Assembly: GCA_965207815.1 (NCBI GenBank)
Contig: OZ242314.1
Coordinates: forward strand, 591,234 to 655,233
Length of the DNA: 64,000 nucleotides
Direction: 5' to 3'
Origin: Tepidiformaceae bacterium
GTDB taxonomy: Bacteria > Chloroflexota > Dehalococcoidia > Tepidiformales > Tepidiformaceae
This document shows, in pieces, positions 39,007 to 54,459 of this stretch. A model generated the notes under the pieces. It was not told where the DNA came from. It did no database searches and was given only the letters and a program-made list of their open reading frames with translations. Within the stretch, counting starts at the first letter, position 1. Every line of letters begins with the position of its first letter. The position numbers were made by a program, and so were the translations under genes.

Positions 39007-39369
39007 CGTGCCGCTCCTCCTCCCCCTGTTGGGGTGATCGAGTCTGCGGCCACTGACCCGCTCCGAGTAACGCCCCGCGAGGGGGTACAGGTATGCACCC
39101 GGGATGCATGCGTGCACCCCCTTCCAGGACGTGCCCACGGGAGGCGAGATGTGGTGTGCTGAAACCCGCCCGTGCACGAACCGGGACAGCTCGTGAGGGC
39201 CCCGGACGTGTACAGGGAAGAGAGGTGAGTTGCAATTTTGCACCGCCCCTCGTGAGCCCATGGAACCGCGCGTTTCCGGGGGAACTGCGGCGACATCAGG
39301 GAACAGGGACTCGAAAGGGCGGGTTGTGCCTGACGAGGGCGCAATCGGCGCCTGGAAGGACAAGTTTGC

Positions 39370-40350: not shown

Positions 40351-40933
40351 AGTACCTGGGCAGACGAGGGTTGGACGTACGGACCTGGGTTAGCCCTGCT
40401 CCTGCCCGGCGACTCGGCAGTGTGGGACGTCATGGGCGTGCACAGAGAAAAGAGGGGGATTGCAGAAAGGCAATCGAGGCGAGAACCCCAGTCGGTACAA
40501 GGGGAAACGCCCCCTATCGGACGTAGACAGTAAGCGATTCGGTTCCGGGGCCCATTCCACGCGAAATCGGCAAATTGCCTAGCCGAAATTGACTTTGGTA
40601 ACCGGGACAACGGCGATGTGCGGAAGCCGATTGCGAGGGGACGATGCCAAGTCGTGACCCCTAGTGACGTCAGCTATGACGAGGGTGCTGCCGTCGCAGG
40701 CAAAGGTGGCGGCTTGGGCCACGCCTCGTAGAGTTGCTAGGGTGGCAAAGGCGAACCAGTACACTATGTTCGTAGTTGGTTGGCATCCTACGGTTGCCGT
40801 CACCAGCGGGGACGGAGAATTACCCCACCCTTGGCTGCCATCGTGAGACTCCCAGGAGCCGCCCGCCCCGCGCAATACCAGCTGGAGCGTCGGCTTCCCT
40901 CCGGCCAGGGACAGTTCGTTTGTAGGTTCGCTG

Positions 40934-42166
40934 ATGCCCAGTGTGACGATACATAACCCTGACAGATACATGGCTGACTTGCGACAGATACTCTCGCAAG
41001 GTCGTAAGCGCCTTGGCCTGTTGGTAGGCGCAGGGGCACCGACTGCAATCCGCGTCGATGCCGATGGCAGCATTGTCGAACATGGCGGGAGTCCCTTGAT
41101 TCCCAATATCACGGACCTGACAGGGGCCGTTGTCGATGCGCTCACGGAAGGTGACCGCGGTGTAGTCAAAGTGCTGGAAGAGGAAATCGAAGGGCGGATC
41201 AACATCGAAACAATCTTGACCCAAGTGCGGCTCTTGTCCCAAGCGATTGGGAACTCCGAAATTCACGGCTTGAACTCAGCGGCATACCACTCCCTGGGGC
41301 AGCGCATGTGCGCTGCAGTTGGCGAACGCGTCCGCGTCAATCTACCCGTAGATCCCAATCCTTTCTCGGAAGTTATTTCTTGGATTTCTGGTGCAACTAG
41401 AACACACTCTGTGGAGATATTCACTCCGAACTACGACCTACTCTTTGAAGAAGCATTTGAAAGAGCGCGAGCACCTTTCTTTGATGGATTTAGCGGGTCG
41501 CACAGACCGTTCTTTGATGCTGCAAGTGTCTCCACCGATACTCTTCCTCCTCGTTGGTCCAGGCTGTGGAAGCTCCACGGCTCTCTTGGTTGGGAATTTT
41601 CGGGGAGCACAGTGGTGAGAACTGGGAGTAGGGAAGCGACTGAACTGATCTATCCCGATCACCTGAAGTATGACCAAGTGACCCGGCTTCCTTACTCCGC
41701 ACTCTTCGAGCGCCTACGCTCTTTCCTGACTACGCCAGATACTCTTCTCCTGTGTTCCGGGTTTTCTTTCCTAGATGCTCACATCTGCGCAGTGCTAGAC
41801 GAGGCAATGGCCGCGAATAGTCATACGGCAATCCTTGCCTTTCAGTATCGCAAACTCAAGGAAGAGGAAGCGGCTGTCAGCATCGCGAGTTCCCGACCCA
41901 ATATGAGCGTGTATGCGCGGGACGGTGCGGTCATAAGCGGAGTTGCGGGGCGTTGGGAACCAGGCCAAGGCCTGAACGAGGATTGGGAGGAGATCCGGCA
42001 GACATTTTGGCGGGCTGCATCTACGGACGATGATGCGGAGTTCCTACTTGGTGACTTTGCCAAGTTCGCTAAATTCCTAGCGTTGGCTCAGACACAGCGG
42101 CTGGCATCGCCTCCAGCGGACAGCGGTGGCGACTCGGCTGAAGTCATGCCAGTTGGTGCGGAGTAG
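40934..42166 (+). CDS. SIR2-like (SIR2_2) NADase-type protein of a SIR2-HerA defence pair
   Basis: LLVGAGAPTAI, FTPNYDLLFEEAF and WKLHGSLGW motifs. GC content is markedly lower than in the flanks. Confidence 0.85.
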   Translation: MPSVTIHNPDRYMADLRQILSQGRKRLGLLVGAGAPTAIRVDADGSIVEHGGSPLIPNITDLTGAVVDALTEGDRGVVKVLEEEIEGRINIETILTQVRLLSQAIGNSEIHGLNSAAYHSLGQRMCAAVGERVRVNLPVDPNPFSEVISWISGATRTHSVEIFTPNYDLLFEEAFERARAPFFDGFSGSHRPFFDAASVSTDTLPPRWSRLWKLHGSLGWEFSGSTVVRTGSREATELIYPDHLKYDQVTRLPYSALFERLRSFLTTPDTLLLCSGFSFLDAHICAVLDEAMAANSHTAILAFQYRKLKEEEAAVSIASSRPNMSVYARDGAVISGVAGRWEPGQGLNEDWEEIRQTFWRAASTDDDAEFLLGDFAKFAKFLALAQTQRLASPPADSGGDSAEVMPVGAE

Positions 42167-44003
42167 CCAATTGCTCAGTCGTGACCCCACATATCTCGGA
42201 GAGATTGCAGCAGTTTCTGGTGCTGCGATCACTGTCCATCTTGCCCAGTCGATCGCGTCTGGGCTGTCGATGATCCGCGGCAGGACTTATAGGGTGGGGC
42301 AGGTTGGTAGCTTCGTCAGGGTGCCACAGGGATACCAAGACTTCTTCGGGGTGGTGTCGGAAGTTGGAGCGAGTGCCGTGCCCGAGCGTGTGGACGCCGT
42401 AGACGACACTGGCCGTTGGATGAAGGTCGAGCTTGTTGGCGAGGTAATCGCCGGACGATTTGAGCGTGGCGTTAGTCAGTATCCAAATATCGGGGACTCA
42501 GTTCACTTGGCCATCGAGGACAATCTTCGGAGGATCTATGACGTCGATGGTCGTGGTTATGTCGCTATTGGCTCGCTTGCGAGCGCCGAGGGAATAACGG
42601 CAAACGTCGCACTCGATGAATTGGTGACGCGTCACTCCGCAGTGCTGGGATCTACCGGTTCCGGAAAGTCTACGACTGTAGCCAGCCTCTTGAGGGCCGT
42701 GACAGCTGCCAACGCCGAGGGCGAACGATACCAGAGTGCCCGAGTGCTGATGCTGGACGTACATGGGGAGTACGCGGTGCCCCTCTCCGATATGGCCCAG
42801 GTTTTCAGTGTCGAACCCCAGCACGGCGAGGAACGCTTAGTTATCCCCTACTGGGCTCTGGATACGGAGAATCTCCTGGAATTCTTGGCCGGTGGCTTGG
42901 AGGGAAATCGAGAGACCGCATTTACGGACAAGATATTCGAACTAAAAGCGAAATCGCACGAATCCCAATCGTTCCCAGGTGTCCACTCAAGCTCCATTAC
43001 CGTGGACACGCCCTTGCCGTTCAGTCTCAAGCGGCTGTGGCATGAGCTCATCGACTTTGAAATTGCCACCTTCGAGGGGAAGGAGCGGGATCAGTCGACT
43101 CTGCAGAGTCAGGGGGATCCAGAAACACTAACGCCACCGCGCTACAAACCTCACGCGATGGGTGCGGCCGGGCCCTTCCTCAACCAACAGGCTTTCGGGA
43201 TACAGCGCCCGCTCAACCTTCTGCGTTCGCGGCTGCTGGATCGGCGCTATGACTTCCTGCTGCGGCCGGGACCTTGGGAACCCGACCTTGAGGGCCGACC
43301 TGAAAGGGATCTTGACGCCCTCCTACAAGGTTGGCTGGGTGGCAAAAGGCCCATCACCATCCTCGACCTCTCGGGGGTACCAAGTAGCGTCCTTGAACGG
43401 CTGGTCGGTTCGATACTCAAGATTGTCTACGAAGCACTGTTCTGGAGCCGCGAGAAGACGGAGGGCGGCGTTCAACGGCCGCTATTGATTGTCATGGAAG
43501 AGGCTCACAGGTATCTCTCTGACACATCGGGGGGCGAGGCTTCCGAAGTTGTTGAGAGAATTGTGAAGGAAGGGAGAAAGTACGGTGTAGGTGCCATGGT
43601 AGTGAGCCAGCGTCCATCCGAGGTACACGAGACTATACTGTCCCAGTGCGGCACGTTTTTTGCTCTGCGTCTTTCAAACCCAGCGGATCGTGCGCGCGTT
43701 CAAGGGACGTTGCCAGATAGCCTGGTCGGGCTCCTCGAAGTCCTTCCGATTCTCCGCACGGGAGAAGCAATCGTGACCGGAGAAGCGGCCAAGCTTCCCA
43801 TGCGCTGCCGTGTTTCGCTCCCTCCCAAGGAACACCGGCCTCGCAGCGAAGATCCGCAGGTGAGCGCGCAGTGGCGATTGATGAGACGGGACGAGGGCTA
43901 CCAGCGGGTCGTGGCGTCATGGCGTGCACAGAGCCCACTGGCGGTCGAAAAGCAGTTGGACATCGAGAGGACACCAGTCGAAGATGACTCCGACTGGGAG
44001 TAA
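42126..44003 (+). CDS. HerA-like (DUF87/FtsK-HerA superfamily) ATPase
   Basis: Walker A LGSTGSGKSTTVASLL, Walker B LLIVMEEAHRYL and an N-terminal barrel-like IGEIAAVSGAAITVHL. The start is uncertain: ATG 42126 or GTG 42156, both overlapping the SIR2 3' end. Confidence 0.85.
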   Translation: MATRLKSCQLVRSSQLLSRDPTYLGEIAAVSGAAITVHLAQSIASGLSMIRGRTYRVGQVGSFVRVPQGYQDFFGVVSEVGASAVPERVDAVDDTGRWMKVELVGEVIAGRFERGVSQYPNIGDSVHLAIEDNLRRIYDVDGRGYVAIGSLASAEGITANVALDELVTRHSAVLGSTGSGKSTTVASLLRAVTAANAEGERYQSARVLMLDVHGEYAVPLSDMAQVFSVEPQHGEERLVIPYWALDTENLLEFLAGGLEGNRETAFTDKIFELKAKSHESQSFPGVHSSSITVDTPLPFSLKRLWHELIDFEIATFEGKERDQSTLQSQGDPETLTPPRYKPHAMGAAGPFLNQQAFGIQRPLNLLRSRLLDRRYDFLLRPGPWEPDLEGRPERDLDALLQGWLGGKRPITILDLSGVPSSVLERLVGSILKIVYEALFWSREKTEGGVQRPLLIVMEEAHRYLSDTSGGEASEVVERIVKEGRKYGVGAMVVSQRPSEVHETILSQCGTFFALRLSNPADRARVQGTLPDSLVGLLEVLPILRTGEAIVTGEAAKLPMRCRVSLPPKEHRPRSEDPQVSAQWRLMRRDEGYQRVVASWRAQSPLAVEKQLDIERTPVEDDSDWE

Positions 44004-44014
44004 GGACGGGACCG

Positions 44015-44227
44015 ATGAATAGGCAGCAAGTGGCTTCCTCGAATGTAGGGGCGATCGGATACGACGCACAAAGCCAGACTCTTGAAGTCGAGTTCCTAAG
44101 TGGTTGGGTCTATCAGTACTACGGAGTTCCCGTCCATATATATGAGGAATTTTTACAAGCATCTTCAAAGGGAAGGTTCCTCAACCAATACATCAAGGAC
44201 TCTTATCCGTATTCTAGAGTGGAGTGA
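44015..44227 (+). CDS. KTSC domain protein (70 aa)
   Basis: SSNVGAIGYDAQSQTLEVEFLSGWVYQYYGVPVHIYEEFLQASSKGRFLNQYIK is the KTSC pattern. The gene starts 11 nt after the herA stop. Confidence 0.75.
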   Translation: MNRQQVASSNVGAIGYDAQSQTLEVEFLSGWVYQYYGVPVHIYEEFLQASSKGRFLNQYIKDSYPYSRVE

Positions 44228-44281: not shown

Positions 44282-47200
44282 TCAGTTTCCCTCTGCACCG
44301 CCAGCCTCGACCGCCTGGAAGATTTCCCGAGCGAGGACGGCGAAGGCAATCTCCTGAAACTCGGGGTCGCTCAGATAGCGGGTGACGAGGGCGTCGTTCT
44401 TGCCCGTACGCTCGATCATTAGCTTGCCGATGCGGTCGCGAATGCCGAGGCTGAACTTGTCGAACGGGTTGGCGACGGCGATCTGGCGCACGTCTTCGTC
44501 GCGGAGGGCGCGCTCCTTGACCTGCTCGAAAAAGAGGCGGTCCTCGTCCGTGAAGTTGGTGCCGAACCGCTCGTTGAGCTGCTCGATGATCTCCGAGAGC
44601 GGCGCCTTCTCCTCCCCCGGCTTGCCCGTGCCCACGGCGGTCGGGCTCACCACGTAGGCCTCCCGCTCTTCCTCGAAGGCGACGGTACCGGACGAGACAC
44701 GCTCCAGGCGGTAGTACTCGAGGCTCACGTCGTCCCCCAGGTCGATAGGACCCTCACGGGCCGGCTGGAGGGAGGGGAGGAGGAGTCGCCCAAACGATGC
44801 GAGCCGCTCCTGTTCGCTGTCGCCGTACGGGATGATCTGGCTGAGGAAGGAGTAGAGGTTCACGAACGCGCTGAGCCGGTCGCGGAAGGCGTTCTGTTCG
44901 TCCTCGTCGAGACTCTGGAAGCGGTCCCGAGCAGGCTGGAGGCACTCCTCGATTCGCGCGTGGTCGCCGGGTTGCTGCCGCGCAACGGGCAGGTAGAAAA
45001 CCTTCGCGAACGCCTCCACCTCGCTCGCGTAGTAGACCTGCATACCGTCGAGCTCGTGCTTCAGCTGCTCAAGCTGGTGCGGGTCCGAGGCTTCCAGCAG
45101 CTGCGTGCGGTCGTAGTAGGGGGCGAAGGCGTCCCGGATGTCCCTGGGATCGTTCACGAAGTCGAGGACGAAGGGAGCCTCCTTGCCGGGCGAGACTCGG
45201 TTGAGGCGCGAGAGCGTCTGTACCGCCTGAACGCCGTCGAGCCGCTTGTCGACGTACATGGCCTGCAGCAGCGGCTGATCGAAGCCCGTCTGGTACTTCT
45301 CCGCGACGAGCAGGATCTGGTAGTCGGGCGACGCGAAGCGAGCCGGCAGCCTAGCTTCGCCTATCGGTTTGCCCGTCACGACGTCGATGTTCATGGCGGG
45401 CTCGGTGAACTCCTCGCCGGTGTCGGGATCGGTGACCGTCCCGCTGAAGGCCACGAGCGGGCGGATGTCGTCGTAGGCGCGCTCAGCGATGTAGCCCTGG
45501 AAGGCCTGCATGTACCGGACGGCGTGGAGCCTCGACCCCGTGACCACCATCGCCTTCGCCCTGCCACCGATGCGATGGCGGACACTATCGCGGAAGTGCT
45601 CGACGATGACCTCGGTCTTTTGGGAGATGTTGTGGGGGTGAAGGGTCATGAACTTGGCCAGCGCGACGGCCGTCCGGCGCTTGGGCACGTCCGGATCGTC
45701 CGCGGCCTGCTTCGCGATGCGGTAGTAGGTGTTGTAGTCGGTGTAGTTCTGGAGCACGTCGAGGATGAAGCCCTCCTCGATCGCCTGGCGCATGCTGTAG
45801 ACGTGGAAGGGCTCCGGCTTGCCGCTGGGACCGGGGCGGCCGAACAGCTCGACGGTCTTGCCCTTGGGCGTCGCCGTGAACGCGAAGAACGAGAGGTTGG
45901 GCTGGGGGGCGCGTGACTCGACCATCGCGGTGAGGCCGTCCTGCCAGTCCTCTGGTTCCTCGTCTGTCTGGTTGCGCGACCCGAGAATGGCCTTCATCCC
46001 CCGCGCGGTCTCGCCGGTCTGACTGGAGTGCGCCTCGTCGACAATGACGGCGTAGCGGCGGCTCGCGATCTCCCGCCGCCACTGACCCGCCTGCTCCTGC
46101 TCCGCCTCCGAAGGATCCTCGGACGGAGCCGCGCCGGCGATGGTCAGGAGCCCTTTCAGGACGAAGGGGAACTTCTGCAGCGTCGTGATAACGATCTTCG
46201 TGCCATCGACGAGCGCCTGGGCGAGCTGCCGGGAGTCCTGGTCGATGGCCTTCACGACGCCCTGGGCGTGCTCGATCTGGTAGATGGCGTCCTGCAACTG
46301 CTGGTCGAGGACGCGTCGGTCGGTGATGACGACGACACAGTCGTAGACCTTCTCGTCGGCGGCGTTGTGCAGGCTTGAGAGCCGGTGGGAGAGCCAGGAG
46401 ATGCTGTTCGTCTTGCCGCTGCCGGCGGAGTGCTGGATGAGGTAGTTGCGGCCGGGACCGTCCGCCTTGACGGTGGCCACGAGCTTGCTGACCGAGTCGA
46501 GCTGGTGGTAGCGAGGGAAGATGACGATCTCGCGTTTCTCGGTGCGCGGGCCCTTCTCGTCCTCGGCCTTCTCCTCACGAGTCTCGAGGAACACGTAGGA
46601 GCCGAGGATGTCGAGGAAGCGTTCCTTCTCGAGCACGTCCTGCCAGAAGTAGCCGGTGCGGTAGCCGGATGGGTGCTGCGGGTTGCCGGCTCCGCAGCGG
46701 ACGGCGCCCGGGTCACTGCCGCGGTTGAAGGGCAGGAAGCGTGTGGCCTCGCCGGCGAGCCGCGTGGTCATGTGGACCTGTTCCGGGTCGGCAGCGAAGT
46801 GGACAAGGGCTCGCTTCTGGAACCGGAAGAGGGGCGCGTTCGGGTCTCGGTCCTGCTGGTACTGGCGGACCGCGCTGCGCCACGTCTGGCCGGTCATCGG
46901 GTTCTTCAGCTCGCAGGTGGCGACGGGCACGCCGTTGAGCGCGAAGAGGAGGTCGACTTCATCGCCCTTCCCCGGGTGGCAGCGCGCCTGGCGCGTGACC
47001 GTCAGATCGTTGCGCTCGAAGCGAGTCAGGGCGTCCGGGTTGAGGCCGGACGCAGGCTTGAAGTAGGCAAGCCGGAAGGTCTTGCCGGAGAAACGGAAGC
47101 CGTGGCGGAGGACGTGCAGGGAGCCTTTGAGATCGAGCTCCCTGTTCAGCGTCTCGGTGATGGCAGAGTCCAGGTTGTCCCCGTGGAGCGCGACCATGTC

Positions 47201-47365
47201 AGCCCAGAGTTCCGGCTGGGTGTCCCGGATAAACGCGAGGGCGTCGGCGGAGAACAGCGCCCGGTCGACATCCCAGTCTTCACGGTCGCCCTGCCGCCAG
47301 CCGCCGTCGAGCAGCATCGACTCGACGGTGGACTCGAACGCGAACTCGTTCGTCTGGCTACTCAT
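44282..47365 (-). CDS. hsdR: Type I restriction enzyme, R subunit
   Basis: HSAGSGKTNSISW (Walker A), DEAHSSQTG (DEAH box), helicase C motifs and a C-terminal DUF3387-like tail. The ATG at 47365 forms an ATGA overlap with the upstream DUF4411 stop. Confidence 0.95.
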   Translation of the reverse strand: MSSQTNEFAFESTVESMLLDGGWRQGDREDWDVDRALFSADALAFIRDTQPELWADMVALHGDNLDSAITETLNRELDLKGSLHVLRHGFRFSGKTFRLAYFKPASGLNPDALTRFERNDLTVTRQARCHPGKGDEVDLLFALNGVPVATCELKNPMTGQTWRSAVRQYQQDRDPNAPLFRFQKRALVHFAADPEQVHMTTRLAGEATRFLPFNRGSDPGAVRCGAGNPQHPSGYRTGYFWQDVLEKERFLDILGSYVFLETREEKAEDEKGPRTEKREIVIFPRYHQLDSVSKLVATVKADGPGRNYLIQHSAGSGKTNSISWLSHRLSSLHNAADEKVYDCVVVITDRRVLDQQLQDAIYQIEHAQGVVKAIDQDSRQLAQALVDGTKIVITTLQKFPFVLKGLLTIAGAAPSEDPSEAEQEQAGQWRREIASRRYAVIVDEAHSSQTGETARGMKAILGSRNQTDEEPEDWQDGLTAMVESRAPQPNLSFFAFTATPKGKTVELFGRPGPSGKPEPFHVYSMRQAIEEGFILDVLQNYTDYNTYYRIAKQAADDPDVPKRRTAVALAKFMTLHPHNISQKTEVIVEHFRDSVRHRIGGRAKAMVVTGSRLHAVRYMQAFQGYIAERAYDDIRPLVAFSGTVTDPDTGEEFTEPAMNIDVVTGKPIGEARLPARFASPDYQILLVAEKYQTGFDQPLLQAMYVDKRLDGVQAVQTLSRLNRVSPGKEAPFVLDFVNDPRDIRDAFAPYYDRTQLLEASDPHQLEQLKHELDGMQVYYASEVEAFAKVFYLPVARQQPGDHARIEECLQPARDRFQSLDEDEQNAFRDRLSAFVNLYSFLSQIIPYGDSEQERLASFGRLLLPSLQPAREGPIDLGDDVSLEYYRLERVSSGTVAFEEEREAYVVSPTAVGTGKPGEEKAPLSEIIEQLNERFGTNFTDEDRLFFEQVKERALRDEDVRQIAVANPFDKFSLGIRDRIGKLMIERTGKNDALVTRYLSDPEFQEIAFAVLAREIFQAVEAGGAEGN

Positions 47366-47862
47366 GAACCAGGTGACGGGCCGAGCACAAATCGGGCTTG
47401 CTCGTTCCTCAACATTTCGTACGGCGTGACGCACTTGAGGCCAAGCCCAATGCACGCATCGGGAATCTTGATCTTGCGAGTGGACCCTGACGCGCGCTCG
47501 TGCGTGACAACAACATGCTGACCGGCATATGCCTGCCCGACGAGATAGTAGTCCGCCACTTGAAAGAAGGTGCTTATGGCACCGGGCTCATAGTTCTGGC
47601 TGGTGGCCCACGTGCTCACTGCACTGAGTGCAGGAAGGAGGGTCGCGTCCGGCGGTACAAAGAAGTCACCGCCTTGGGCCGCAGCCCAAGTAGCTAGGTC
47701 ATCCTTACCGGCCTCCAATTCATCGCCGACCCTCTCGATGCTGTACACCACGCCTGCCTCGTTCTGCTCGATCAGCCAGTCCCAGAAGGCCGGGCAGAAG
47801 TCGAAGCCGTAGTGCAGATTCTTTGCGCTGATGAACACGTTGGCGTCGAGAAGATAGGCCAT
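47362..47862 (-). CDS. DUF4411 (PIN-like nuclease fold) protein
   Basis: MAYLLDANVFISAKNLHYGFDFCPAFWDWL... is the DUF4411 N-terminal signature. Its start codon directly abuts the stop of the upstream ImmA-like gene. Confidence 0.8.
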   Translation of the reverse strand: MAYLLDANVFISAKNLHYGFDFCPAFWDWLIEQNEAGVVYSIERVGDELEAGKDDLATWAAAQGGDFFVPPDATLLPALSAVSTWATSQNYEPGAISTFFQVADYYLVGQAYAGQHVVVTHERASGSTRKIKIPDACIGLGLKCVTPYEMLRNEQARFVLGPSPGS

Positions 47863-49008
47863 CTACGCGCCCATCCCCAGCGACTCTGCGAGGCGTTCGA
47901 ACGAGGACTGCTTCCTGACTCCGAGGAGACGATACGCCTCCGTATAGGACGTTCTGCCCTCTAGCGCGCTCGCGATAAGGGCACGTGTAAGGCGCTTGCC
48001 GGCACGCGCACTGACATTCCTGACGGCATCTCCACCGGATCTGGGGGGCAATGCTTCGAGACGCGCCAGCTCTTCGCGATATGCAGCACGGAATTCCGCC
48101 CAGCCAAGCGCTCCCACATCGTGAAGGCGACGGATCGCGACCAGCCTGCTTACCTTGCAGCGACGGGCCAGCCCTTGAACCTCCTCGCTCAAATCTCCGG
48201 TGGGGTCGAACTCTGCACGTACCAGTTCAGCCGGGGCGAGCAACTCAGCCGCAACCTGGTTGCACCAGAGCTCAACCCTGTGGTCGGGGTCACTCTCGGC
48301 GGGGGCGTTCGAGACCCCCGATTCGCCGAGCCAGACATGGCAGAGCTCGTGGGCAAGGGTGTACATCTGCGCGGCCTTCGTGTCAGCCCCGTTAATGAAG
48401 ACCAGCGGCGCAACCGGGTCGGCCAGAGTGAACCCGCGGAACTCTGAGGGGTCGAGTTGGCGGTGAGTATTGCTGCCCACGATGCCGCTCACCATCACCA
48501 GGACGCCCAACCCATCGGTCTGCGCAATGAATTGGCGCAGCGCCTCAGACCATGTCGACAACTGTCTCCGGTGCTCCACATCGAATCCCAAAGCTTGGCC
48601 CAACTCCCCGGCCACGACAGGTGGATCGGCGCCTGTGTCGACGCTGCCGACGAACTCGAGCGGTGGCTCGCCGGCGATGCGCGCTTCTTCGCGGTACCAC
48701 TCTTGGCGCTGTTGGCACAGGTAGATCGTGTCGAGCAAGTCGGGAGAGGGACGGCTGATGGGCACGTCGCCGACCGTACGGAAGTCAGGGAGGGGAAGCT
48801 CTTCCGTCGGCGGCTCCGTCAGGAACAGGAAGCCAATCGGCGTGTGGGTAGCCTTCGCAAAGTCCTCAAGCTGTCGGAACGTGGGCAGCAGCGAGCCACG
48901 CTCCCACTCGTCCAGCCGCGGAAACCGGCGCTGGAGGTCATCCGTACTCTTGCCGGACCTCTCCCGGGCCCAGCGGAGCAGGTTGGGCTCGATGCCAACC
49001 CGGTTCAT
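47863..49008 (-). CDS. XRE-type HTH plus ImmA/IrrE (COG2856) zinc metallopeptidase
   Basis: N-terminal HTH-like LLRWARERSGKSTDDLQRRF and the HExxH motif AHELCHVWLGESG. It overlaps hsdS by 4 nt. Confidence 0.85.
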   Translation of the reverse strand: MNRVGIEPNLLRWARERSGKSTDDLQRRFPRLDEWERGSLLPTFRQLEDFAKATHTPIGFLFLTEPPTEELPLPDFRTVGDVPISRPSPDLLDTIYLCQQRQEWYREEARIAGEPPLEFVGSVDTGADPPVVAGELGQALGFDVEHRRQLSTWSEALRQFIAQTDGLGVLVMVSGIVGSNTHRQLDPSEFRGFTLADPVAPLVFINGADTKAAQMYTLAHELCHVWLGESGVSNAPAESDPDHRVELWCNQVAAELLAPAELVRAEFDPTGDLSEEVQGLARRCKVSRLVAIRRLHDVGALGWAEFRAAYREELARLEALPPRSGGDAVRNVSARAGKRLTRALIASALEGRTSYTEAYRLLGVRKQSSFERLAESLGMGA

Positions 49009-50414
49009 GTTGGCGATTCTCGCACATCGACCTTACCGGTGACGGCGGCGGTGATGAGAGCGGTCCTGTATTCCTGCAGCCGCTCGATGGCCGACTCAGC
49101 CCCTCCCCCCATCTCGTCGAGTGCCGCCGTCTGGCCATCAAGGAAGATTCCGATCGCTCGCTGCTCTGCGAGGGGTGGAACGGGAACGACGGTCTCCCCC
49201 ACAGCCGAGTTGGGAAGCCCATACCGCGTGACCCCCGAAGCGGAAGTCTGAAGCTGTTGGTTCACCGCCACGGACTGCATCACGCGGAATAAGAACGCTG
49301 GCTCCAGCGATGAACTGGGGCTGATGATGCCGAGGTGATAGCCGCAAACGAAGTCGTCAGCGGTCTCTTCGATCAGTGCTGGGACAGCGATGTCGCGCCA
49401 GTCTTCGGAGTCCTTGGTGATCAAGACATCGCCCACGCGCAACCGGAAACGTGCGATCTCGCGCGGCGAGGCAGTGGCCTTCATGAAGTCACCGTCGCCA
49501 GCGCGGATCCGGTCCTGGTAGTACACGTCGGTGTAGTTGCACAGCCTGACTGCGACTTCACCCTCCTCGGCCTTCTTGTCCACGCTGCTGGCCCGGTACG
49601 ACGCGACGTGCTCCAGCCGCCTGACCTCCCAGTGCTCCGCCACATCGCCGAGCCACTCGACGCCCGAGGGCTTGAGGCGGGGCGAGGGGTCGAGGCCGGC
49701 GGCACGGGCGGCGTCGGCCGGGATGCCGCCCGTCACGGAGCGGGTGATGAGCGCTGTCCGGTACTCCTGCAGACGCTCGACGAGCTGCCGCTTCTTCGCC
49801 ACGAGCGCGTCGATGCGCTCCGTCTCTCGGTCGAGGAAGGCAGCGATCGCGCGCTGCTCGTCGAGAGGAGGGAGGGGGAGGACAGCGTTGCCCACTGCCG
49901 AGTTTGGCAGCCCATACCGCGTGACTCCCGAGGCGGAGGTCTGAAGCTGCTGATTTACGGAGCCGGACTGCATCAGCCGGAAAAGGAAGCCGGAATCCAG
50001 TTCCTCGCGAGCCCTGATGATCCCGAGGTGATACCCGCACACGAAGTCGGGAGCAGTCTCTTCGATGAGGGCCGGCACCCCGATGTCCCGCCAGTCTTCC
50101 GAGTCCTTCGTGATCAAGACATCGCCCACCCGCAACCGAAAACGTGCCATCTCGCGCGGCGAGGCAGTGGCCTCCATGAAGTTACCGGCGCTAGCGCGGA
50201 TCCGGTCCTGGTAGTACACGTCGGTGTAGTTGCACAGCCTGACTGCGACCTCACCCTCCTCGGCCTTCTTGTCCACGCTGCTGGTCCGGTAAGACGCAAC
50301 GTGCTCCAGCCGCCTCACATCCCAGTGCTTCGGCACGTCGCCGAGCCACTCAACACCGGAGGGGCGGTAGGCAGGGTAGGGGTGCTGGGGGCTCATGTGA
50401 GTCTCGCTAGCCAA
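49005..50414 (-). CDS. hsdS: Type I restriction enzyme, S subunit, with two near-identical target recognition domains
   Basis: It has two Methylase_S modules. Residues 18-228 and 249-459 align collinearly at roughly 85% identity by eye. Conserved spacers include LPPLDEQRAIAAFLD and ERLQEYRTALIT. Confidence 0.9.
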   Translation of the reverse strand: MASETHMSPQHPYPAYRPSGVEWLGDVPKHWDVRRLEHVASYRTSSVDKKAEEGEVAVRLCNYTDVYYQDRIRASAGNFMEATASPREMARFRLRVGDVLITKDSEDWRDIGVPALIEETAPDFVCGYHLGIIRAREELDSGFLFRLMQSGSVNQQLQTSASGVTRYGLPNSAVGNAVLPLPPLDEQRAIAAFLDRETERIDALVAKKRQLVERLQEYRTALITRSVTGGIPADAARAAGLDPSPRLKPSGVEWLGDVAEHWEVRRLEHVASYRASSVDKKAEEGEVAVRLCNYTDVYYQDRIRAGDGDFMKATASPREIARFRLRVGDVLITKDSEDWRDIAVPALIEETADDFVCGYHLGIISPSSSLEPAFLFRVMQSVAVNQQLQTSASGVTRYGLPNSAVGETVVPVPPLAEQRAIGIFLDGQTAALDEMGGGAESAIERLQEYRTALITAAVTGKVDVRESPT

Positions 50415-51816
50415 GGTCGATCAGTGGGGCCAGCGCGTCACGGTCTAGGCCGAACCGGGTGGGCTGGCTCATACACTCGTCCACTACCTTGAGGATTCTC
50501 TCCAGGCGCTCACTATCACCACCGCCCAAACGCTGATGCTCTTGGGACAGGTACTCTGGGTGATCCGGTGCGGAATGATCCACCAGACGCAGGAGCTGCG
50601 ACCTGACCTGGAATGCATCGTCCGCACAGTAGATGGCGGCCGCTATCCGGTCGAGACCCTCGTCGTCGTACATCAAGTGGTGGCTAAAGCGGCGCCGATT
50701 CGCACGAGTGAGATCGTTGAAGTAGTCGACGACTTGGGCCCCACGAGCACTGCCCTCCATGTACCGGCGGTACAGCCCGGGATTGGCAACCTTCAACGCA
50801 ACGAGCCCGGCGAAGAGATATTGATCGACCAGCGCACGCCCACGGTCACTCGCCACGGCCAGGGACACCACCCGAACGCAGTAGTCCATGTCGCGCAGCG
50901 AGAGGCCCATGTTTCCGACCAGTAAGGGCAAGGCACTGACTAGCAGGTCAACCTCGACCTGAACCCCGCTCTCCTTAGGAGCGCGCCTCCGGTAAAGAAC
51001 CCGGTGGAGTTCGTACCGCTCCATCAGGAATTTGCAGAACTCAACGGGGTCCGGTTCCGGCAGCGTGAAATTCATGTCGAAGAAGCGCCGCAGGTAGGCT
51101 CCCGCGTCGATCTCGCCGTAGACCGACTGAAGCGACTTCACGAGCTCGCTTCGGTTGATGCCGAAGACGAACACGATGCTGTCCACGTCGAAGATGTGCT
51201 TGACGCGCTCCAAGAGCTTGATCGCGAAGGTCGGGCGGCACCGGTCAAGCTCGTCGATGATGAAGATGAGGGGCTGGCCGGTCTCCTCGTGCACTGCGCT
51301 GGCGAGTTTGGATAGCTGATCCTTCACCGTCGTCTTCGTCTCTTGCTGCGCTCGATAGTCGTCCAGCAGGCCTTCGGCAGTCAGGTCATCTAGGTGGATG
51401 GCCGTCCCGGCGATGTGCTTCGTGATAATTCCCAACGCAGCGTTGGCGACAGCGAGCGCCGCCTTCTTGAGCGTGCCGTCGTCGAAGTAGTCGGAGAGTT
51501 GCCCGATGATCGCCAGCAGCGGGTCATCGGAGAAGTCGTCCGCCCACGCATTGAAGTAGATGGCCTGCCAGCCCTGGTTCTCAAGGTCCTGCTGCCAACG
51601 CTTCAACAGGAAGGTCTTCCCGGTCCCCCAGCCACCGTCGACGCTAATGACGAAAGGCGCCTGCTGACCCTCGACCACTTTGGTCAGGCGGTCGGCGACT
51701 TCCCTGCGCCGAAGCACATCGTCGTCCCATGGGGCGTCCGCGTTGATATCGGGGTCGACGACCTTGAGGGGCGGCGCGTCGGGGCGCGCCTCGGTGGACT
51801 CAGGCTCCTGGGTCAT
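50407..51816 (-). CDS. KAP family P-loop NTPase
   Basis: VISVDGGWGTGKTFLLKRW (Walker A) and IFIIDELDRCRP (Walker B, the KAP hallmark DELDRC). The gene is embedded between hsdM and hsdS and overlaps hsdS by 8 nt. Confidence 0.85.
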   Translation of the reverse strand: MTQEPESTEARPDAPPLKVVDPDINADAPWDDDVLRRREVADRLTKVVEGQQAPFVISVDGGWGTGKTFLLKRWQQDLENQGWQAIYFNAWADDFSDDPLLAIIGQLSDYFDDGTLKKAALAVANAALGIITKHIAGTAIHLDDLTAEGLLDDYRAQQETKTTVKDQLSKLASAVHEETGQPLIFIIDELDRCRPTFAIKLLERVKHIFDVDSIVFVFGINRSELVKSLQSVYGEIDAGAYLRRFFDMNFTLPEPDPVEFCKFLMERYELHRVLYRRRAPKESGVQVEVDLLVSALPLLVGNMGLSLRDMDYCVRVVSLAVASDRGRALVDQYLFAGLVALKVANPGLYRRYMEGSARGAQVVDYFNDLTRANRRRFSHHLMYDDEGLDRIAAAIYCADDAFQVRSQLLRLVDHSAPDHPEYLSQEHQRLGGGDSERLERILKVVDECMSQPTRFGLDRDALAPLIDLG

Positions 51817-51819
51817 GCG

Positions 51820-53922
51820 TCAGCTTCTCACCACATCCGAGAGCAGGTCCGTGATCTCCTGCTCCAGTGCCTGCAGGTCCGACTCGATCTCCTCGAGCGG
51901 GCGCGGTGGCTCGTACACGTAGAAGTGGCGGTTGAGGGGAATCTCATAGCCGATCTTTGTCTTGCTCTTGTCCACCCAGGCGTCGGGCACATGCGGTAGT
52001 ACCTCGCGCTCGATGTAGGCGTCGACGCCCTCGCGGAGGGGAACGGTCTCGGTGGCGCGGAGCTCGGTGTCGGGCTCGGGGTTGCCATTACGGTCGAGAC
52101 AGACGGCGGCCTCAGGGTCGCGCTCCCCGAGGGCGGCAAGGATGACCTTCCGCTCGGGCGCGGCCAGACGCAGGTCGGCGTCCTTGGCCGCAGCGTTCAG
52201 CATCTCAACGAACGCCTCGCGGTCCCACACCACCTCGCCACCCGTCGCCTCCGCGAGCGAACCGAGCAGAGCGCGGATGGCTTCTTGACGCGCCCGGCCT
52301 TCCGCCACCTCTGCATCGTGCGCGGTCCCGGGCCGCTTCCGACTCGTCGACAGGTTCTGGAACGCACGCTCGTCCTCAATACGTGCGATGCGCTCCGGCG
52401 TGACGGCGAAGTTCAGGCGCAGGGGACGCTCGACTGTCACTTTGCGGTAGCCGAAGTCCTCGTTCGCGAACACCTTGCTCACAACGCGCGGCCGAGTGCG
52501 GGGTTCGCGCGTGACGGGGTCCTCGTCGGTCTGGTCGCGCGTCTCCCCGTCCTCGAAGTTCCCATGGATGATCGTGAGGTCGTCGATCTGCTCGGGCGAC
52601 AGCTCGTTCCGCTTGTTGCCGAGGCTCTTGCGCATCTTCACGAAGAAATGGCGCCCGTCGATGAGCTGCACATTGCCCTGGCGGTGTGGCTCCTTACGGT
52701 TCGTGAGCACCCAGATGTAGGTGGAGATGCCGGTGTTGTAGAAGAGTTGATCGGGAAGCGCGACGATGGCCTCGAGCCAGTCGTTCTCGATGATCCACTG
52801 GCGGATGTTGCTCTCGCCGCTGCCGGCGTCGCCTGTGAACAGCGGCGAGCCATTGAAGACGATGGCGATGCGGCTGCCGCCCTCCTCGACAGCCTGCGTC
52901 TTCGAGAGCATGTGCTGCAGGAACAGCAGGGAGCCGTCGTTGATCCTGGGAAGTCCGGCGCCGAAGCGGCCGTCGTAGCCGAGCGTGCGCGCCTCGTAGT
53001 CGATGTCGTGTTGTTGCTGCTTCCACTCCACGCCGAAGGGCGGATTGGCGAGCATGTAGTCGAAGGTGTGCCTCCGGCCGTCGGGACGGCGGGCGTAGCC
53101 GTCTTGCCTGAACGTGTCGCCGAGGATGATGTTGTCGGCGTCGTCGCCCTTCAGGAGCATGTCGGACTTGCAGACGGCCCACGACTCGTCGTTCATGTCC
53201 TGCCCATACAGGATTGGCCTCGAGTCCCGGTTGTGCTCGCGGAGGTACTTGTCGGCCTCGGAGAGCATGCCGCCGGTACCACACGCCGGGTCGTAGATGG
53301 TCTTCACGACGTGGCCGCGTCCGAGGTCGGGCTCCGGCGAGAGGAGCAGGCTGACCATCAGCCGAATGACCTCACGCGGCGTGAAGTGCTCCCCTGCCTC
53401 CTCGTTCGCCTGCTCAGCCCCAATGCGGATCAATTCCTCGAACACGTAGCCCATCTGGATGTTGTCGACGCGACCCGGCGAGAGGTCGACCCCAGCGAAC
53501 GCCTGGATGACCTGGAACAGCACGTTCTTCTCGCCCATGCGCACGACCTGAGCGTCGAATGCGAAGCGCTCCATGATCTCGTGCACGTTTGGGGAGAAGT
53601 CGCGGATGTAGGCGCTGAGGTTCTGCGCGAGGTTGTTGGGGTCGTCGAGCAGCCGTCCGAAGTCGAACAGCGAGGTGTTGTAGAAGGCCCGCCCGGACGC
53701 CTGGAGAAGGCGACTCACGCGCACCTGCTCGTTCGCGTCCGCATAGGCGGCGTCGGCATCGAGCACCGCCTCCTTCGTGTCCGAGAGCACGCAGTCGAAG
53801 CGTCGCAGCACGGTCAGCGGGAGGATGACCTTGCGGTACTCGTTCCGCTTGTAGTGCCCCCGCAACAGGTTGCAGATGTTCCAGATGAAGTTCGCAAGCT
53901 CAGCGTGCGTCCGCGGGTTCAT
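51820..53922 (-). CDS. hsdM: Type I restriction enzyme, M subunit (N6-adenine DNA methyltransferase)
   Basis: HsdM_N LANFIWNICNLLRG, SAM motif IYDPACGTGGML and catalytic LANPPFG. The start was reset to ATG 53922. Confidence 0.95.
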   Translation of the reverse strand: MNPRTHAELANFIWNICNLLRGHYKRNEYRKVILPLTVLRRFDCVLSDTKEAVLDADAAYADANEQVRVSRLLQASGRAFYNTSLFDFGRLLDDPNNLAQNLSAYIRDFSPNVHEIMERFAFDAQVVRMGEKNVLFQVIQAFAGVDLSPGRVDNIQMGYVFEELIRIGAEQANEEAGEHFTPREVIRLMVSLLLSPEPDLGRGHVVKTIYDPACGTGGMLSEADKYLREHNRDSRPILYGQDMNDESWAVCKSDMLLKGDDADNIILGDTFRQDGYARRPDGRRHTFDYMLANPPFGVEWKQQQHDIDYEARTLGYDGRFGAGLPRINDGSLLFLQHMLSKTQAVEEGGSRIAIVFNGSPLFTGDAGSGESNIRQWIIENDWLEAIVALPDQLFYNTGISTYIWVLTNRKEPHRQGNVQLIDGRHFFVKMRKSLGNKRNELSPEQIDDLTIIHGNFEDGETRDQTDEDPVTREPRTRPRVVSKVFANEDFGYRKVTVERPLRLNFAVTPERIARIEDERAFQNLSTSRKRPGTAHDAEVAEGRARQEAIRALLGSLAEATGGEVVWDREAFVEMLNAAAKDADLRLAAPERKVILAALGERDPEAAVCLDRNGNPEPDTELRATETVPLREGVDAYIEREVLPHVPDAWVDKSKTKIGYEIPLNRHFYVYEPPRPLEEIESDLQALEQEITDLLSDVVRS

Positions 53923-54459
53923 ACGCTCTCGGTCTTCAGGCGGACCTGCCTTGGCAGGCCCCTGGCAGGGTGTCTCGCCAGCCGGTGGGCGACGGGGCCA
54001 CATTGTGGCCGCTGCCGGGGTCTACCGCTACGGGGTTCATTCCAGAACCCCCCTCCAGGACCTTACGCGTCCTCCGATGCGCGGGAACACTGGCAAGCCC
54101 AAGACGGGAGTGCAGAAGCATGGACGACGCAACACAGGACACATACACCCCGGAACAGCGCGAGACGCTCGAGGCAGGTCTGCGGATACTGGCGCGGGTG
54201 ATCGTTCGGGAGCACCTGCGTCGGCAGGCAGGGGTTCAAGCTGATCCCAACGAAACCGCCTCCGGACCAGAGACGCGCTCCATTGGAGACGGCGCAGGGG
54301 CGTAGCGCAGATCGTCAGCGACGAGAGATCTCGCCTCGGGGGACGAGTTGACAGGCGTTGAAGGCCTCCTCGTCAGCCAGGCCCCACAGGGCGTTTGCCA
54401 GTAGGATCGTGAGTGCGATCGCATCTGGCCCTGCCAATGTTCCTCGTCGGCGATGAAAC

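Follow-up and report, generated by a model that had tools for sequence, protein, structure and literature searches.

The window analysed here is a stretch of 64,000 nucleotides from a Tepidiformaceae bacterium. On its minus strand, at positions 44282-53922, the ORF listing and the direct reading of the junctions place six genes in the order hsdM, KAP NTPase, hsdS, HTH-M78 peptidase, DUF4411 and hsdR (Table 1), within a locus that sits in a low-GC island. The initial annotation had given this gene order together with all five junctions, each +3 nt or less, and both were recovered: hsdM and KAP are separated by a 3-nt gap, hsdS and the M78 gene overlap by 4 nt, M78 and DUF4411 follow each other with a 0-nt gap, and the start of hsdR overlaps the stop codon of DUF4411 by 4 nt (ATGA). 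The 8-nt overlap listed between KAP and hsdS holds if hsdS starts at TTG 50414, but ATG 50396 is the more probable start, because the resulting 10-nt gap is also present in the related loci L093, L095 and L096. Even so, 10 nt cannot accommodate a promoter. The starts of hsdM and hsdR match the gene lengths called in L093.

Table 1. Features of the six-gene operon and its flank, in window coordinates.
Feature	Position	Strand	Basis
hsdR, restriction/translocase subunit, 1027 aa	44282-47365	-	Pfam HSDR_N, SWI2_SNF2, ResIII, T1R_D3-like; PADLOC REase_I
Guest 2b, VapC52-like DUF4411 PIN-fold toxin, 166 aa, predicted tRNase	47362-47862	-	Pfam DUF4411 1.7e-50
Guest 2a, VapB52-like antitoxin, 381 aa	47863-49008	-	Pfam Peptidase_M78 6.5e-14; PDB 9VZY chain A match
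Swappable cassette, here M78-DUF4411	47366..49017		Homology break with respect to sister operons L095, L096 and L001
hsdS, specificity subunit	49005-50414 (start probably ATG 50396)	-	Pfam Methylase_S; PADLOC Specificity_I 5.8e-115
Guest 1, soluble KAP-family P-loop NTPase, 469 aa	50407-51816	-	Pfam KAP_NTPase 4.9e-38; PADLOC PDC-S20 5.4e-98
hsdM, type I methyltransferase subunit, 700 aa	51820-53922	-	Pfam N6_Mtase 2.5e-58, HsdM_N 5.7e-25
Conserved region upstream of hsdM	53923..54231		About 82% DNA identity with L093 and L001, past the hsdM start

The absence of internal promoter space, also proposed initially, applies to the intergenic DNA, and we limit it to this since the promoter and terminator scan was uninformative (0 promoters by consensus, terminator-like sites at the level of shuffled controls); promoters may lie inside coding sequence. 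The conserved region upstream of hsdM is a candidate promoter/regulatory region of the operon. A 61-aa plus-strand ORF is also found there, at 54120-54305, where a 55-aa gene is called in L093, and a Pfam scan matched it to no family.

The type I restriction-modification (R-M) system is complete: HsdM, HsdS and HsdR each carry a full domain set and catalytic motifs. More specifically, the NPPF and DPACGTGG motifs are intact in HsdM (PADLOC MTase_I 2.3e-275), and DEAH and GSGKT are found in the hsdR translation. With respect to the L093 proteins, HsdM is 87% identical (dN/dS 0.16) and HsdR 90% identical (dN/dS 0.12). The hsdS gene contains a 693-nt internal duplication, with halves that are 91% identical in DNA and two near-identical target-recognition halves. 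HsdM and HsdS would methylate host DNA at a bipartite, probably palindromic site, and HsdR would translocate and cut unmodified DNA.

The arrangement is not unique to this genome: L093, an independent assembly, repeats both the six genes and their junctions, as do L097-L102, where HicAB is added. Comparison with L093 shows purifying selection on each of the six genes (dN/dS 0.09-0.20, a range that leaves out the swapped HsdS), and the guest genes are thus not pseudogenes. As order and junctions recur in independent assemblies and all six genes are under purifying selection, the six-gene arrangement is more than chance.

The first guest, KAP, lies at the hsdM/hsdS junction. Its residues from about 31 to 267 form the conserved P-loop core, which contains a helical insert, and those from about 268 to 469 a C-terminal domain that is all-helical and hypervariable. 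This domain has 25-39% identity in L001 and L002, where HsdM and HsdR are 75-89% identical; DNA homology to L001 ends inside KAP, at 51007. Walker A and Walker B are invariant in the KAP alignment. The nearest PDB folds to the AF2 model (pLDDT 78) are the RADAR ATPase RdrA, ORC/Cdc6, RFC and McrB, and weaker PADLOC matches are PifA and QatA. No transmembrane segment was predicted, the transmembrane insert of the family being absent, and no effector domain was recognised by domain and fold comparison. The genes from which the PDC candidates were drawn lie within BREX, DISARM or type I R-M systems (10.1101/2024.01.29.577857), and single-gene KAP NTPases were shown in 2026 to act against phage, with Walker B required (PMC13552941). 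We consider KAP a PDC-S20-type candidate defence gene. It probably works as a ring-forming, AAA+/STAND-like switch, whose conserved ATPase core would be driven by the fast-changing C-terminal domain, putatively the phage-sensing part. Its effector output is a guess, because the protein has neither a transmembrane insert nor a recognisable effector domain.

The order hsdM-KAP-hsdS is stable in this lineage, an observation that we count as new: it is kept in 10 of the 11 members of the window's KAP subclade, it is maintained down to 47% KAP identity, and it is found with two R-M families, the second one with an HsdR of 38% identity (L011, L020, L027 and L028). This constancy raises the question of whether KAP is a guest at all, or rather an accessory or regulatory R-M subunit acting, for example, in HsdM2S/HsdR assembly, restriction alleviation or target choice. 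A subunit role would suit the spacing of -4 to +3 nt that KAP keeps to its flanking genes hsdM and hsdS (the window, L001, L002, L011 and L035), the missing effector domain and the place of KAP, which adjoins hsdS in every case where it is embedded and is its direct neighbour in 20 of the 25 KAP loci with R-M genes. However, no R-M gene lies within 10 kb of KAP in 55 of the 80 relatives, which have no conserved partner and heterogeneous neighbours and are interleaved on the tree with the embedded ones. Furthermore, L035 combines the window's R-M family with a distant KAP allele (37% identity), many metagenome operons of the form hsdM-hsdS-M78-DUF4411-hsdR have no KAP, and, as mentioned, other KAP NTPases defend as single genes. 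We regard a subunit role as improbable.

The second guest consists of two genes. From its N-terminus, the antitoxin contains a five-helix HTH, the DFR motif at residues 75-77, a zinc peptidase of the M78/IrrE type (H220-E-x-x-H224, E246) and, at the C-terminal end, a helical domain. Pfam makes no call for the HTH; the model shows it as a bundle of five helices, and it is also seen when the protein is aligned with the N-terminal domain of VapB52. The match to 9VZY chain A covers the full length (residues 6-376 against 2-386, E 2.9e-19), and HExxH, E246 and DFR are invariant in antitoxin alignments A3 and A5. The DUF4411 protein matches 9VZY chain D (E 1.4e-8) and 9VZZ (E 2.8e-8), with D6, D21, D54, D104 and E122 invariant in its alignment. 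Both proteins are 96% identical to their L093 counterparts, with dN/dS of 0.09. The pair is homologous to VapBC52 (PDB 9VZY), judging from these alignments, which run end to end in the antitoxin and over residues 23-146 only in DUF4411, with low identity.

In M. tuberculosis, VapBC52 forms a 1:2 complex in which ssDNA triggers self-cleavage of the antitoxin at an FR motif, freeing the PIN tRNase; VapC52 cuts tRNA loops including anticodon loops, and VapB52 binds and neutralises the toxin (PMC13273310). For this organism we infer a comparable biochemistry, in which the DUF4411 PIN nuclease, as a dimer, would be silenced by its large HTH-M78 antitoxin until an infection signal, single-stranded DNA in the case of VapB52, leads the zinc peptidase of the antitoxin to remove the antitoxin's own N-terminal toxin-binding domain at the DFR motif. 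The freed nuclease would then cut anticodon or variable loops of tRNA, stopping translation and causing abortive infection or growth arrest. The activation mechanism may nevertheless differ from that of VapB52, since the 'cysteine switch' C229 of the latter corresponds to an invariant serine, S233, in this subfamily.

The nearest folds to the antitoxin model (IrrE, PprI, PrpR and CapP), a PADLOC capP match (2.5e-12) and the resemblance of the VapB52 N-terminal domain to an R-M controller protein (PMC13273310) could also be read in another way. By analogy with CapP/CapH, ImmA/ImmR or an R-M controller protein, HTH-M78 would chiefly respond to damage or infection by controlling transcription of hsdR or of the entire operon, with DUF4411 secondary, consistent with the translational coupling of hsdR to the pair in many operons. 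We find this very improbable: no separate repressor substrate is encoded, VapB52 neutralises its toxin by binding, and the two genes are passed on together, with their 0-nt junction, even where no hsdR lies downstream.

DNA homology to L095, L096 and L001 ends at 49018 and returns at the hsdR ATG (47365/47366). In place of the M78-DUF4411 pair, a reverse-oriented SocA_Panacea pair (PanAT) is present in L095 and L096, a 183-aa reverse-strand ORF in L001, and DUF4160/DUF2442-like, DUF433/PIN-like or macro-domain genes or a 273-aa gene in other sister operons; HicAB nearby and BrnTA add to the toxin-antitoxin (TA) types at the slot or close to it. The dS with respect to L093 is lower in the cassette (0.19-0.20) than in its neighbours (0.44-0.71), which fits a separate exchange of the cassette. 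The hsdS/hsdR junction is a swappable cassette slot, exchanged cleanly between sister operons, which we count as new.

Such a collection of TA genes could suggest that the pair serves mainly for addiction or stabilisation, or is selfish cargo retaining the low-GC island, with no real role in phage defence; a 69%-identical M78-DUF4411 pair lies alone on Croceicoccus plasmid p2, among other TA genes. On the other hand, overexpression of VapC52 protected M. smegmatis against phage D29 (PMC13273310), stand-alone copies of the pair adjoin variable defence genes (GmrSD, AAA_15+HNH and DUF6414), and the pair is more conserved than the host R-M enzymes, which is unusual for a decaying selfish element. 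This explanation appears to us distinctly improbable.

About one third of the close metagenome homologs of DUF4411 occupy precisely the position between hsdS and hsdR, which we also count as new. The enrichment is very strong: hsdR is directly downstream in 18 of 54 informative loci, often with a 4-nt overlap, and hsdS directly upstream in 12 of 39. The loci span GC contents of 0.45-0.69, with adjoining HsdR proteins 44-69% identical to that of the window, and an Acetobacter plasmid provides a named example. Because of these counts and this GC spread, together with the KAP-hsdS adjacency, the recurrence could mean that the guests depend functionally on R-M, and not simply that the site is convenient for insertion. 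As in PrrC, the tRNase pair, and perhaps KAP, would then form a second line that responds to the condition of the R-M system or to its products, either through ssDNA arising as restricted phage DNA is degraded or through a phage anti-restriction protein disabling HsdMSR. The ssDNA trigger of VapB52 and the anticodon loops cut by VapC52 (PMC13273310) are parallel to PrrC in the same slot, and the persistence of hsdM-KAP-hsdS points in the same direction.

Against such layered immunity, both guests are found intact and alone in many genomes, the pair brings its own antitoxin, and unrelated TA cassettes occupy the slot in sister operons. Stand-alone M78-DUF4411 pairs with 79-80% DUF4411 identity occur in L081-L090, those of L091 and L092 have upstream only a 78-aa HsdM_N relic, and the antitoxin tree mixes embedded copies with stand-alone ones, with at least 14 changes of state. 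A toxin firing at each successful restriction would moreover be costly. We consider triggering by the R-M system possible, although rather unlikely. The reading that we favour, and hold to be reasonably probable, is a composite defence operon in which a type I R-M backbone hosts two self-sufficient modules at two internal junctions, both presumably read from the same transcript as the R-M genes. We consider established a link between guests and R-M that is genetic, consisting of a predicted shared transcript, translational coupling and co-inheritance; as the guests are also found alone, we treat functional wiring to the restriction complex as a hypothesis. The proposal of two guest modules in the operon is thus retained, as a PDC-S20-type NTPase and, by homology to VapBC52, a protease-regulated PIN nuclease, while a role as back-up arms that are wired to the R-M complex, or restrained by it, is not supported, both guests being autonomous elsewhere.

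In summary, two putative anti-phage modules are inserted in the gene junctions of an intact type I R-M operon, and the toxin of one belongs to a family known to cut tRNA. Our literature search found no paper on the exact six-gene combination, as the initial annotation had supposed; the principle of embedded defence, the KAP candidate and the TA family are nevertheless already published. Each part comes from a known family, and the operon is therefore a good example of a known design and not a new kind of system. The comparison with PrrC is apt, since VapC52 cuts tRNA in the anticodon loop and the pair stands where PrrC does, with the difference that it carries an antitoxin of its own. DarTG2, located between hsdS and hsdR in EPEC (PMC12255303), and TgvAB, inside a type I R-M system of V. 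cholerae (PMC11411939), are precedents for independent guests in such a slot.

We read the six long ORFs that occupy 44282-53922 on the minus strand, in the order hsdM, KAP NTPase, hsdS, HTH-M78 peptidase (antitoxin), DUF4411 (toxin) and hsdR, as a composite operon, in which two modules, each autonomous, are probably transcribed and inherited together with a predicted working type I R-M system. The initial annotation had proposed very tight junctions between these genes. Read directly, they consist of a 3-nt spacing from the hsdM stop to the KAP ATG, a 4-nt overlap of the hsdS stop with the M78 ATG, a 0-nt junction between the M78 TAG and the DUF4411 ATG, and an overlap of the DUF4411 TGA with the hsdR ATG as ATGA, all as proposed. 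The 8-nt overlap described between KAP and hsdS stands only if hsdS starts at TTG 50414; from ATG 50396, which is likely the correct start, the two genes are separated by a 10-nt gap, the same as in L093 (a metagenome scaffold carrying the same six genes) and in the related loci L095 and L096, and the HsdS N-terminus becomes similar to those of its homologs. The hsdM and hsdR starts chosen earlier give proteins of 700 and 1027 aa, the lengths called in L093, and all the domain calls were confirmed by Pfam (see the table).

As far as the sequence allows us to judge, the backbone has the components that define a type I R-M system, namely HsdM, HsdS with two TRDs, and HsdR with predicted nuclease and SF2 translocase domains. 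The motifs DPACGTGG and NPPFG (AdoMet/NPPF) are present in the hsdM translation, as are DEAH and GSGKT in the translation of hsdR, whose match to TIGR00348 (hsdR) reached 1e-51, under the curated cut-off. Analysis of hsdS revealed an internal duplication of 693 nt, with TRD halves that are 91% identical in DNA, so that a palindromic bipartite recognition site is predicted. The GC content of the operon stretch is 0.55-0.67, against 0.68-0.70 in the flanks, and a scan of the window revealed no tRNA or integrase at the edges of this low-GC island. A consensus promoter scan of the locus gave 0 promoter-like sites, with terminator-like sites at the level of the shuffled control, and was uninformative.

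Features of the operon and its surroundings, with protein identity and dN/dS with respect to L093
Feature	Coordinates	Strand	Matches and description	Identity to L093	dN/dS
Replic_Relax-like ORF	37369-39786	-	Replic_Relax-like C-terminal part, weak (Pfam 6.6e-07)		
SIR2-HerA-KTSC cluster	40934-44227	+			
SIR2	40934-42166	+	PADLOC 2.1e-155		
HerA	42126-44003	+	PADLOC 1e-158		
KTSC	44015-44227	+	Pfam 2.3e-25		
hsdR		-	Pfam HSDR_N, SWI2_SNF2, ResIII, T1R_D3-like	90%	0.12
DUF4411 toxin		-	Pfam DUF4411 1.7e-50	96%	0.09
M78 antitoxin		-	Pfam Peptidase_M78 6.5e-14	96%	0.09
hsdS	49005-50414	-	Pfam Methylase_S; Specificity_I 5.8e-115, two matched stretches		
Repeats in hsdS	49321-49620 and 50014-50313				
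KAP NTPase	50407-51816	-	Pfam KAP_NTPase (PF07693) 4.9e-38	76%	0.20
KAP C-terminal block	50407-51007	-	Exchanged between otherwise near-identical operons		
hsdM		-	Pfam N6_Mtase 2.5e-58, HsdM_N; PADLOC MTase_I 2.3e-275	87%	0.16
hsdM upstream region	53923-54305		~82% conserved with L093 and L001		
61-aa ORF	54120-54305	+	No family match		
883-aa ORF	54460-57111	+	No match in Pfam, PADLOC or NCBIfam	50%	0.23

On one side of the operon, the SIR2-HerA-KTSC cluster converges on hsdR, and the same trio follows hsdR in L093. KAP homologs are also found directly beside SIR2-HerA in three other loci (L010, L014 and L026), so that these modules travel together. On the other side, the 883-aa ORF is divergent from hsdM and shows strongly hydrophobic stretches from its N-terminus on; L093 has a 944-aa homolog at the equivalent position, and the ORF is possibly an uncharacterised defence-island gene. 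Between this ORF and hsdM, the conserved stretch of ~300 nt contains the 61-aa ORF, at a place where L093 has a 55-aa gene, and could encode a small operon regulator. Just outside the low-GC island, at ~36800-40600, the ORFs other than the Replic_Relax-like one match no family. The flanking ORFs scanned (36841-44003, 54460-57111) gave no CBASS-related match.

KAP homologs were aligned and 80 genomic loci were fetched and annotated by tblastn and iterated HMMs. The order hsdM-KAP-hsdS-slot-hsdR, where the slot is the hsdS/hsdR junction, is found in Tepidiformaceae and Dehalococcoidia MAGs (L001-L005, L007), with identities to the window of 72-88% for HsdM, 69-89% for HsdR and 47-60% for KAP, in a Victivallis MAG (L035) and, with a second HsdR family (38-39% identity), in L011, L020, L027 and L028. 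L093 carries exactly the six genes with identical junctions, flanked as in the window by the convergent HerA-SIR2 pair and the divergent homolog of the 883-aa ORF, while in L097-L102, which come from several samples, the six-gene operon is accompanied by a HicAB pair and hsdS is split into genes of 203 and 238 aa. In the comparison with L093, purifying selection acts on all the operon genes apart from hsdS, whose TRDs are swapped. The initial annotation had named two findings that would weigh against it, an arrangement unique to this genome and guests that are pseudogenes; as the operon recurs in L093 and, with HicAB, in L097-L102, and as the guests are under purifying selection, neither applies.

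The first guest, the KAP NTPase (469 aa), matches the PADLOC family PDC-S20 (PDLC04959) at 5.4e-98, residues 20-382 aligning with positions 6-387 of the 464 in the profile, and its PADLOC matches to PifA and QatA are weaker and cover the P-loop only. The Walker motifs (G64, G66, K67, T68 and D188-E-L-D-R-C-R-P195) are invariant in the KAP alignment. In the AF2 model (pLDDT 78), a P-loop core carrying a helical insert is joined to a C-terminal half made up of helices only. Among solved structures, its fold is closest to the RADAR ATPase RdrA, ORC/Cdc6, RFC and McrB, and the model shows no effector domain; searching the PDB with a profile of the KAP alignment gave no structure related in sequence. 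The transmembrane helices within the P-loop domain that Aravind et al. 2004 reportedly described as a hallmark of the KAP family are absent here. In the model, the insert (residues 114-179) forms a soluble helical hairpin, and no transmembrane segment was predicted in the protein; the sole borderline hydrophobic window (Kyte-Doolittle 1.68) lies elsewhere, at residue 289. The PDC candidates are predictions drawn from genes found inside BREX, DISARM or type I R-M loci (10.1101/2024.01.29.577857), and single-gene KAP NTPases protect Enterococcus against phage in a Walker-B-dependent manner (PMC13552941). A literature search for 'PDC-S20' returned no paper, and the accessible part of the supplementary tables of Payne et al. 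has no PDC-S20, DUF4411 or M78 entry.

Type I R-M genes are present at <=10 kb in 25 of the 80 KAP loci, and in 20 of those 25 KAP touches hsdS (15 upstream, 5 downstream), while the remaining 55 loci have heterogeneous neighbours. We rejected a conserved partner for stand-alone KAP, as the 54 same-strand neighbours fall into 65 unrelated Pfam families, none of them found in more than 2 members. The NJ tree places the window KAP in a subclade of 11 members, 10 of which have the hsdM-KAP-hsdS order, and elsewhere embedded and solitary genes are interleaved. Within the protein, the P-loop core is 70-86% conserved, whereas residues 268-469 are only 25-39% identical in L001 and L002, despite 75-89% identity of their HsdM and HsdR to those of the window. 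DNA homology to L001 ends at 51007 (~KAP residue 270) and is picked up again within the conserved 5' portion of hsdS. By this drop in identity and this break in homology, the C-terminal domain behaves as a swappable cassette, and we infer that it is a specificity or sensor domain. The variable core between the conserved hsdM and hsdR is made of this domain, the HsdS TRDs and the slot. Co-variation of the KAP C-terminal domain with the slot cassette or with the TRDs was rejected, since L093, L095 and L096 share the domain and differ in both.

The hsdS/hsdR slot (47366-49017 in the window) carries different genes in sister operons, whose family names were assigned by reading sequences and not by profiles: a DUF4160/DUF2442-like pair in L002 and L007, a DUF433 and PIN-like pair in L011 and L028, a macro-domain gene in L020, a 273-aa gene in L035, and a SocA_Panacea pair in reverse orientation in L095 and L096. 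The borders of the slot are sharp, with the homology of the window DNA to L095, L096 and L001 stopping at 49018, 11 nt before the hsdS stop, and picking up again exactly at the hsdR ATG. The dS of the cassette with respect to L093 is 0.19-0.20, against 0.44-0.71 for the neighbouring genes, which fits a separate exchange of the cassette.

In the window, the slot is occupied by the second guest, the pair of HTH-M78 antitoxin (381 aa) and DUF4411 toxin (166 aa). Proteins with HTH, DUF955/COG2856 and DUF4411 were predicted to form a three-component TA system by Matelska et al. 2017 (PMC5499597). By phmmer against the PDB, the M78 protein matches chain A of 9VZY from end to end (residues 6-376 against 2-386, E 2.9e-19), and the DUF4411 protein matches chain D of 9VZY (1.4e-8) and 9VZZ (E about 1e-8). 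Both structures are of M. tuberculosis VapBC52, in which VapB52 binds two molecules of VapC52, a PIN tRNase acting on anticodon or variable loops; once activated by ssDNA, the IrrE-type peptidase of VapB52 cleaves VapB52 itself near a conserved FR motif and so detaches the N-terminal domain that binds the toxin, and VapC52 expression protects M. smegmatis from phage D29 (PMC13273310).

Several residues of this system can be recognised in the window pair. In the antitoxin, H220, E221, H224 and E246 are invariant in both antitoxin alignments (HExxH being 220-224), and D75-F76-R77, which aligns with the DFR of VapB52 (the proposed site of self-cleavage, where the N-terminal and middle domains meet), does not vary among 9 sequences of 38-96% identity; a further 38 homologs all keep D75 and R77, and at least 90% of them keep F76. 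A cysteine-switch residue occluding the zinc site was described for VapB52 (C229) and also for CapP. At the corresponding position (second His + 9) the window protein has Ser233, invariant in both alignments, as is C249, after the third zinc ligand. The pair has the three-part antitoxin, the FR motif and the DUF4411 toxin of a VapBC52-type system, and does not have the cysteine switch. In the toxin, D6, D21, D54, D104 and E122 are invariant; D6 carries the same number as the residue changed in VapC52 D6A, but this stretch falls outside the HMMER alignment. The antitoxin model, built from database homologs (pLDDT 67), has a five-helix N-terminal HTH, and the folds nearest to it (IrrE, PprI, PrpR and CapP) are the relatives listed for VapB52 (PMC13273310); the 9VZY chains were not among the PDB fold matches of the model. 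By analogy, the mechanism of the TA pair can be transferred from VapBC52, with the missing cysteine switch as a caveat.

We then asked how often such pairs are embedded. Close homologs found by exact-sequence look-up (79-80% DUF4411 identity), are mostly stand-alone beside variable defence genes, and two of them, L091 and L092, have just a 78-aa HsdM_N relic upstream of the pair (5321-7489). An unbiased metagenome scan with the DUF4411 alignment gave 80 loci at 66-77% identity. In 18 of the 54 loci with at least 600 nt downstream, hsdR directly follows DUF4411, often with a 4-nt overlap, and hsdS directly precedes the antitoxin in 12 of the 39 with enough upstream sequence; overall, the pair is embedded in 23 of 60 informative metagenome loci. 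These counts make hsdM-hsdS-M78-DUF4411-hsdR a common architecture. The embedded metagenome loci have a GC content of 0.45-0.69, encode HsdR 44-69% identical to that of the window, and include no KAP gene; the six-gene form with KAP is the rarer union of two modules, each prone to lodge in R-M operons. On plasmids, the pair was found in the order HTH-hsdM-hsdS-ImmA-DUF4411-Abi-hsdR in Acetobacter vaccinii, and alone among TA genes in Croceicoccus. In the antitoxin tree, embedded and solitary members are interleaved, with at least 14 state changes.

Decayed R-M operons that still have intact guests were also observed. In L013 (10001-16042), a truncated hsdS and hsdR surround KAP, a BrnT/BrnA-like pair (by sequence reading) and M78-DUF4411, in L024 (5981-15869) only an hsdM fragment is left, and a short hsdS fragment is kept in L161 and L170; L091 and L092, with their HsdM_N relic, belong here too. 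Guests seem to outlive their host operon, or to move together with its pieces.

In the EcoprrI (prr) type I R-M locus, the gene between hsdS and hsdR encodes PrrC, a nuclease of tRNA anticodon loops. PrrC is a single polypeptide with an ABC-ATPase-like domain and a nuclease, held latent by the R-M complex. A layered, PrrC-like wiring of the guests to the R-M complex, as the initial annotation had proposed, seems unlikely to us, given that intact copies of both guests are frequent outside R-M operons, that the pair carries its own antitoxin and that the slot takes many unrelated TA cassettes, with DarTG2 in EPEC (PMC12255303) and TgvAB in V. cholerae (PMC11411939) as precedents for independent guests in it, even though the strong enrichment of both guests beside hsdS and hsdR gives real support to such wiring. 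In the composite operon that we favour, both guests would be autonomous modules, transcribed and inherited together with the R-M backbone.

It appears quite doubtful that M78-DUF4411 is a widespread PrrC-like second arm, that is, an ssDNA-triggered tRNase co-adapted or coupled with one large type I R-M family. Under such co-adaptation, the antitoxin would sense ssDNA from processed HsdR-cut phage DNA, or the failure of restriction, and would then, as VapB52 does, release an anticodon-loop tRNase, while KAP, with its cassette-like C-terminal domain, would be a third, swappable phage sensor acting via the same complex. If this were true, about one third of the members of this TA subfamily would tie restriction mechanistically to the arrest of translation.

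The nesting of defence genes in type I R-M operons is already known (PrrC, TgvAB, DarTG2, 'guilt by embedding'), the KAP family is a catalogued candidate and the TA family was characterised in 2026. We found no literature report of the two-slot architecture, of the cassette behaviour of the KAP C-terminal domain, or of the embedding of about one third of the VapBC52-like subfamily. The locus is a clean natural case of two embedding sites in one operon, a stable one, with KAP between hsdM and hsdS, and a cassette slot with sharp borders at the hsdS/hsdR junction, where about one third of a large and highly conserved subfamily resides in hosts of very different GC content. Considering that the trigger (ssDNA) and the target (tRNA loops) of VapBC52 are known, cross-talk between an abortive module and a restriction enzyme is directly testable. 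The C-terminal domain of PDC-S20 is moreover nominated as the variable and probably phage-sensing part of a defence candidate.

Compared with known systems, the pair resembles VapBC52 (Rv2515c/Rv2514c) in its gene order, in the antitoxin layout (HTH, FR motif, HExxH M78 and helical C-terminal domain) and in a toxin that, like VapC52, is a DUF4411 PIN protein with Asp at position 6. It differs in that identity is low, the cysteine-switch residue is Ser in the window subfamily and the window pair is a predicted TA system; this pair also lies inside a type I R-M operon, to which it is translationally coupled, a setting that is not described for VapBC52. RosmerTA, a phage-defence TA system (Millman et al. 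2022, 10.1101/2022.05.11.491447), likewise pairs a Zn-peptidase antitoxin with a toxin, and was rejected, since the RmrA matches are weak and restricted to the M78 domain (best 7.2e-12) and DUF4411 matched no PADLOC family, RmrT included. CapH/CapP was rejected as well, the capP profile matching the peptidase domain only (2.5e-12).

The window KAP matches PDC-S20 (Payne et al., 10.1101/2024.01.29.577857), itself a candidate, for which the accessible part of Payne et al. does not report the stable hsdM-KAP-hsdS order or the cassette-like C-terminal domain. With EF_KAP and its relatives (PMC13552941), PifA, QatA and Tmn it shares the Walker motifs and a P-loop core of the KAP type, beyond which the proteins are variable, and it differs from them in having neither transmembrane helices nor QatBCD partners. 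QatABCD was rejected, as the match to NCBIfam QatA reached 45 bits, the cut-off being 600, and the neighbours are hsdM and hsdS.

What the pair has in common with PrrC is its place between hsdS and hsdR and its predicted target, tRNA, to which the role of a second-line, abortive arm may be added by analogy, whereas the window nuclease belongs to the PIN proteins and comes with a peptidase-antitoxin of its own. Membership in PrrC/RloC was rejected, none of the six proteins having matched the PrrC or RloC model in PADLOC. Finally, the operon resembles two tested cases of a TA or defence module nested in, and expressed with, type I R-M, namely DarTG2 in the RptR-RMS-DarTG2-M48 island of EPEC (PMC12255303) and the GmrSD-like TgvAB in VPI-2 of V. 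cholerae (PMC11411939), whose authors regard the hsdS/hsdR site as a probable recombination hotspot (PMC12255303, PMC11411939). A homolog of RptR was not identified at the window locus, and the guests there are DarTG2 and a GmrSD-like system, with one module in each operon, in contrast to the two found here.
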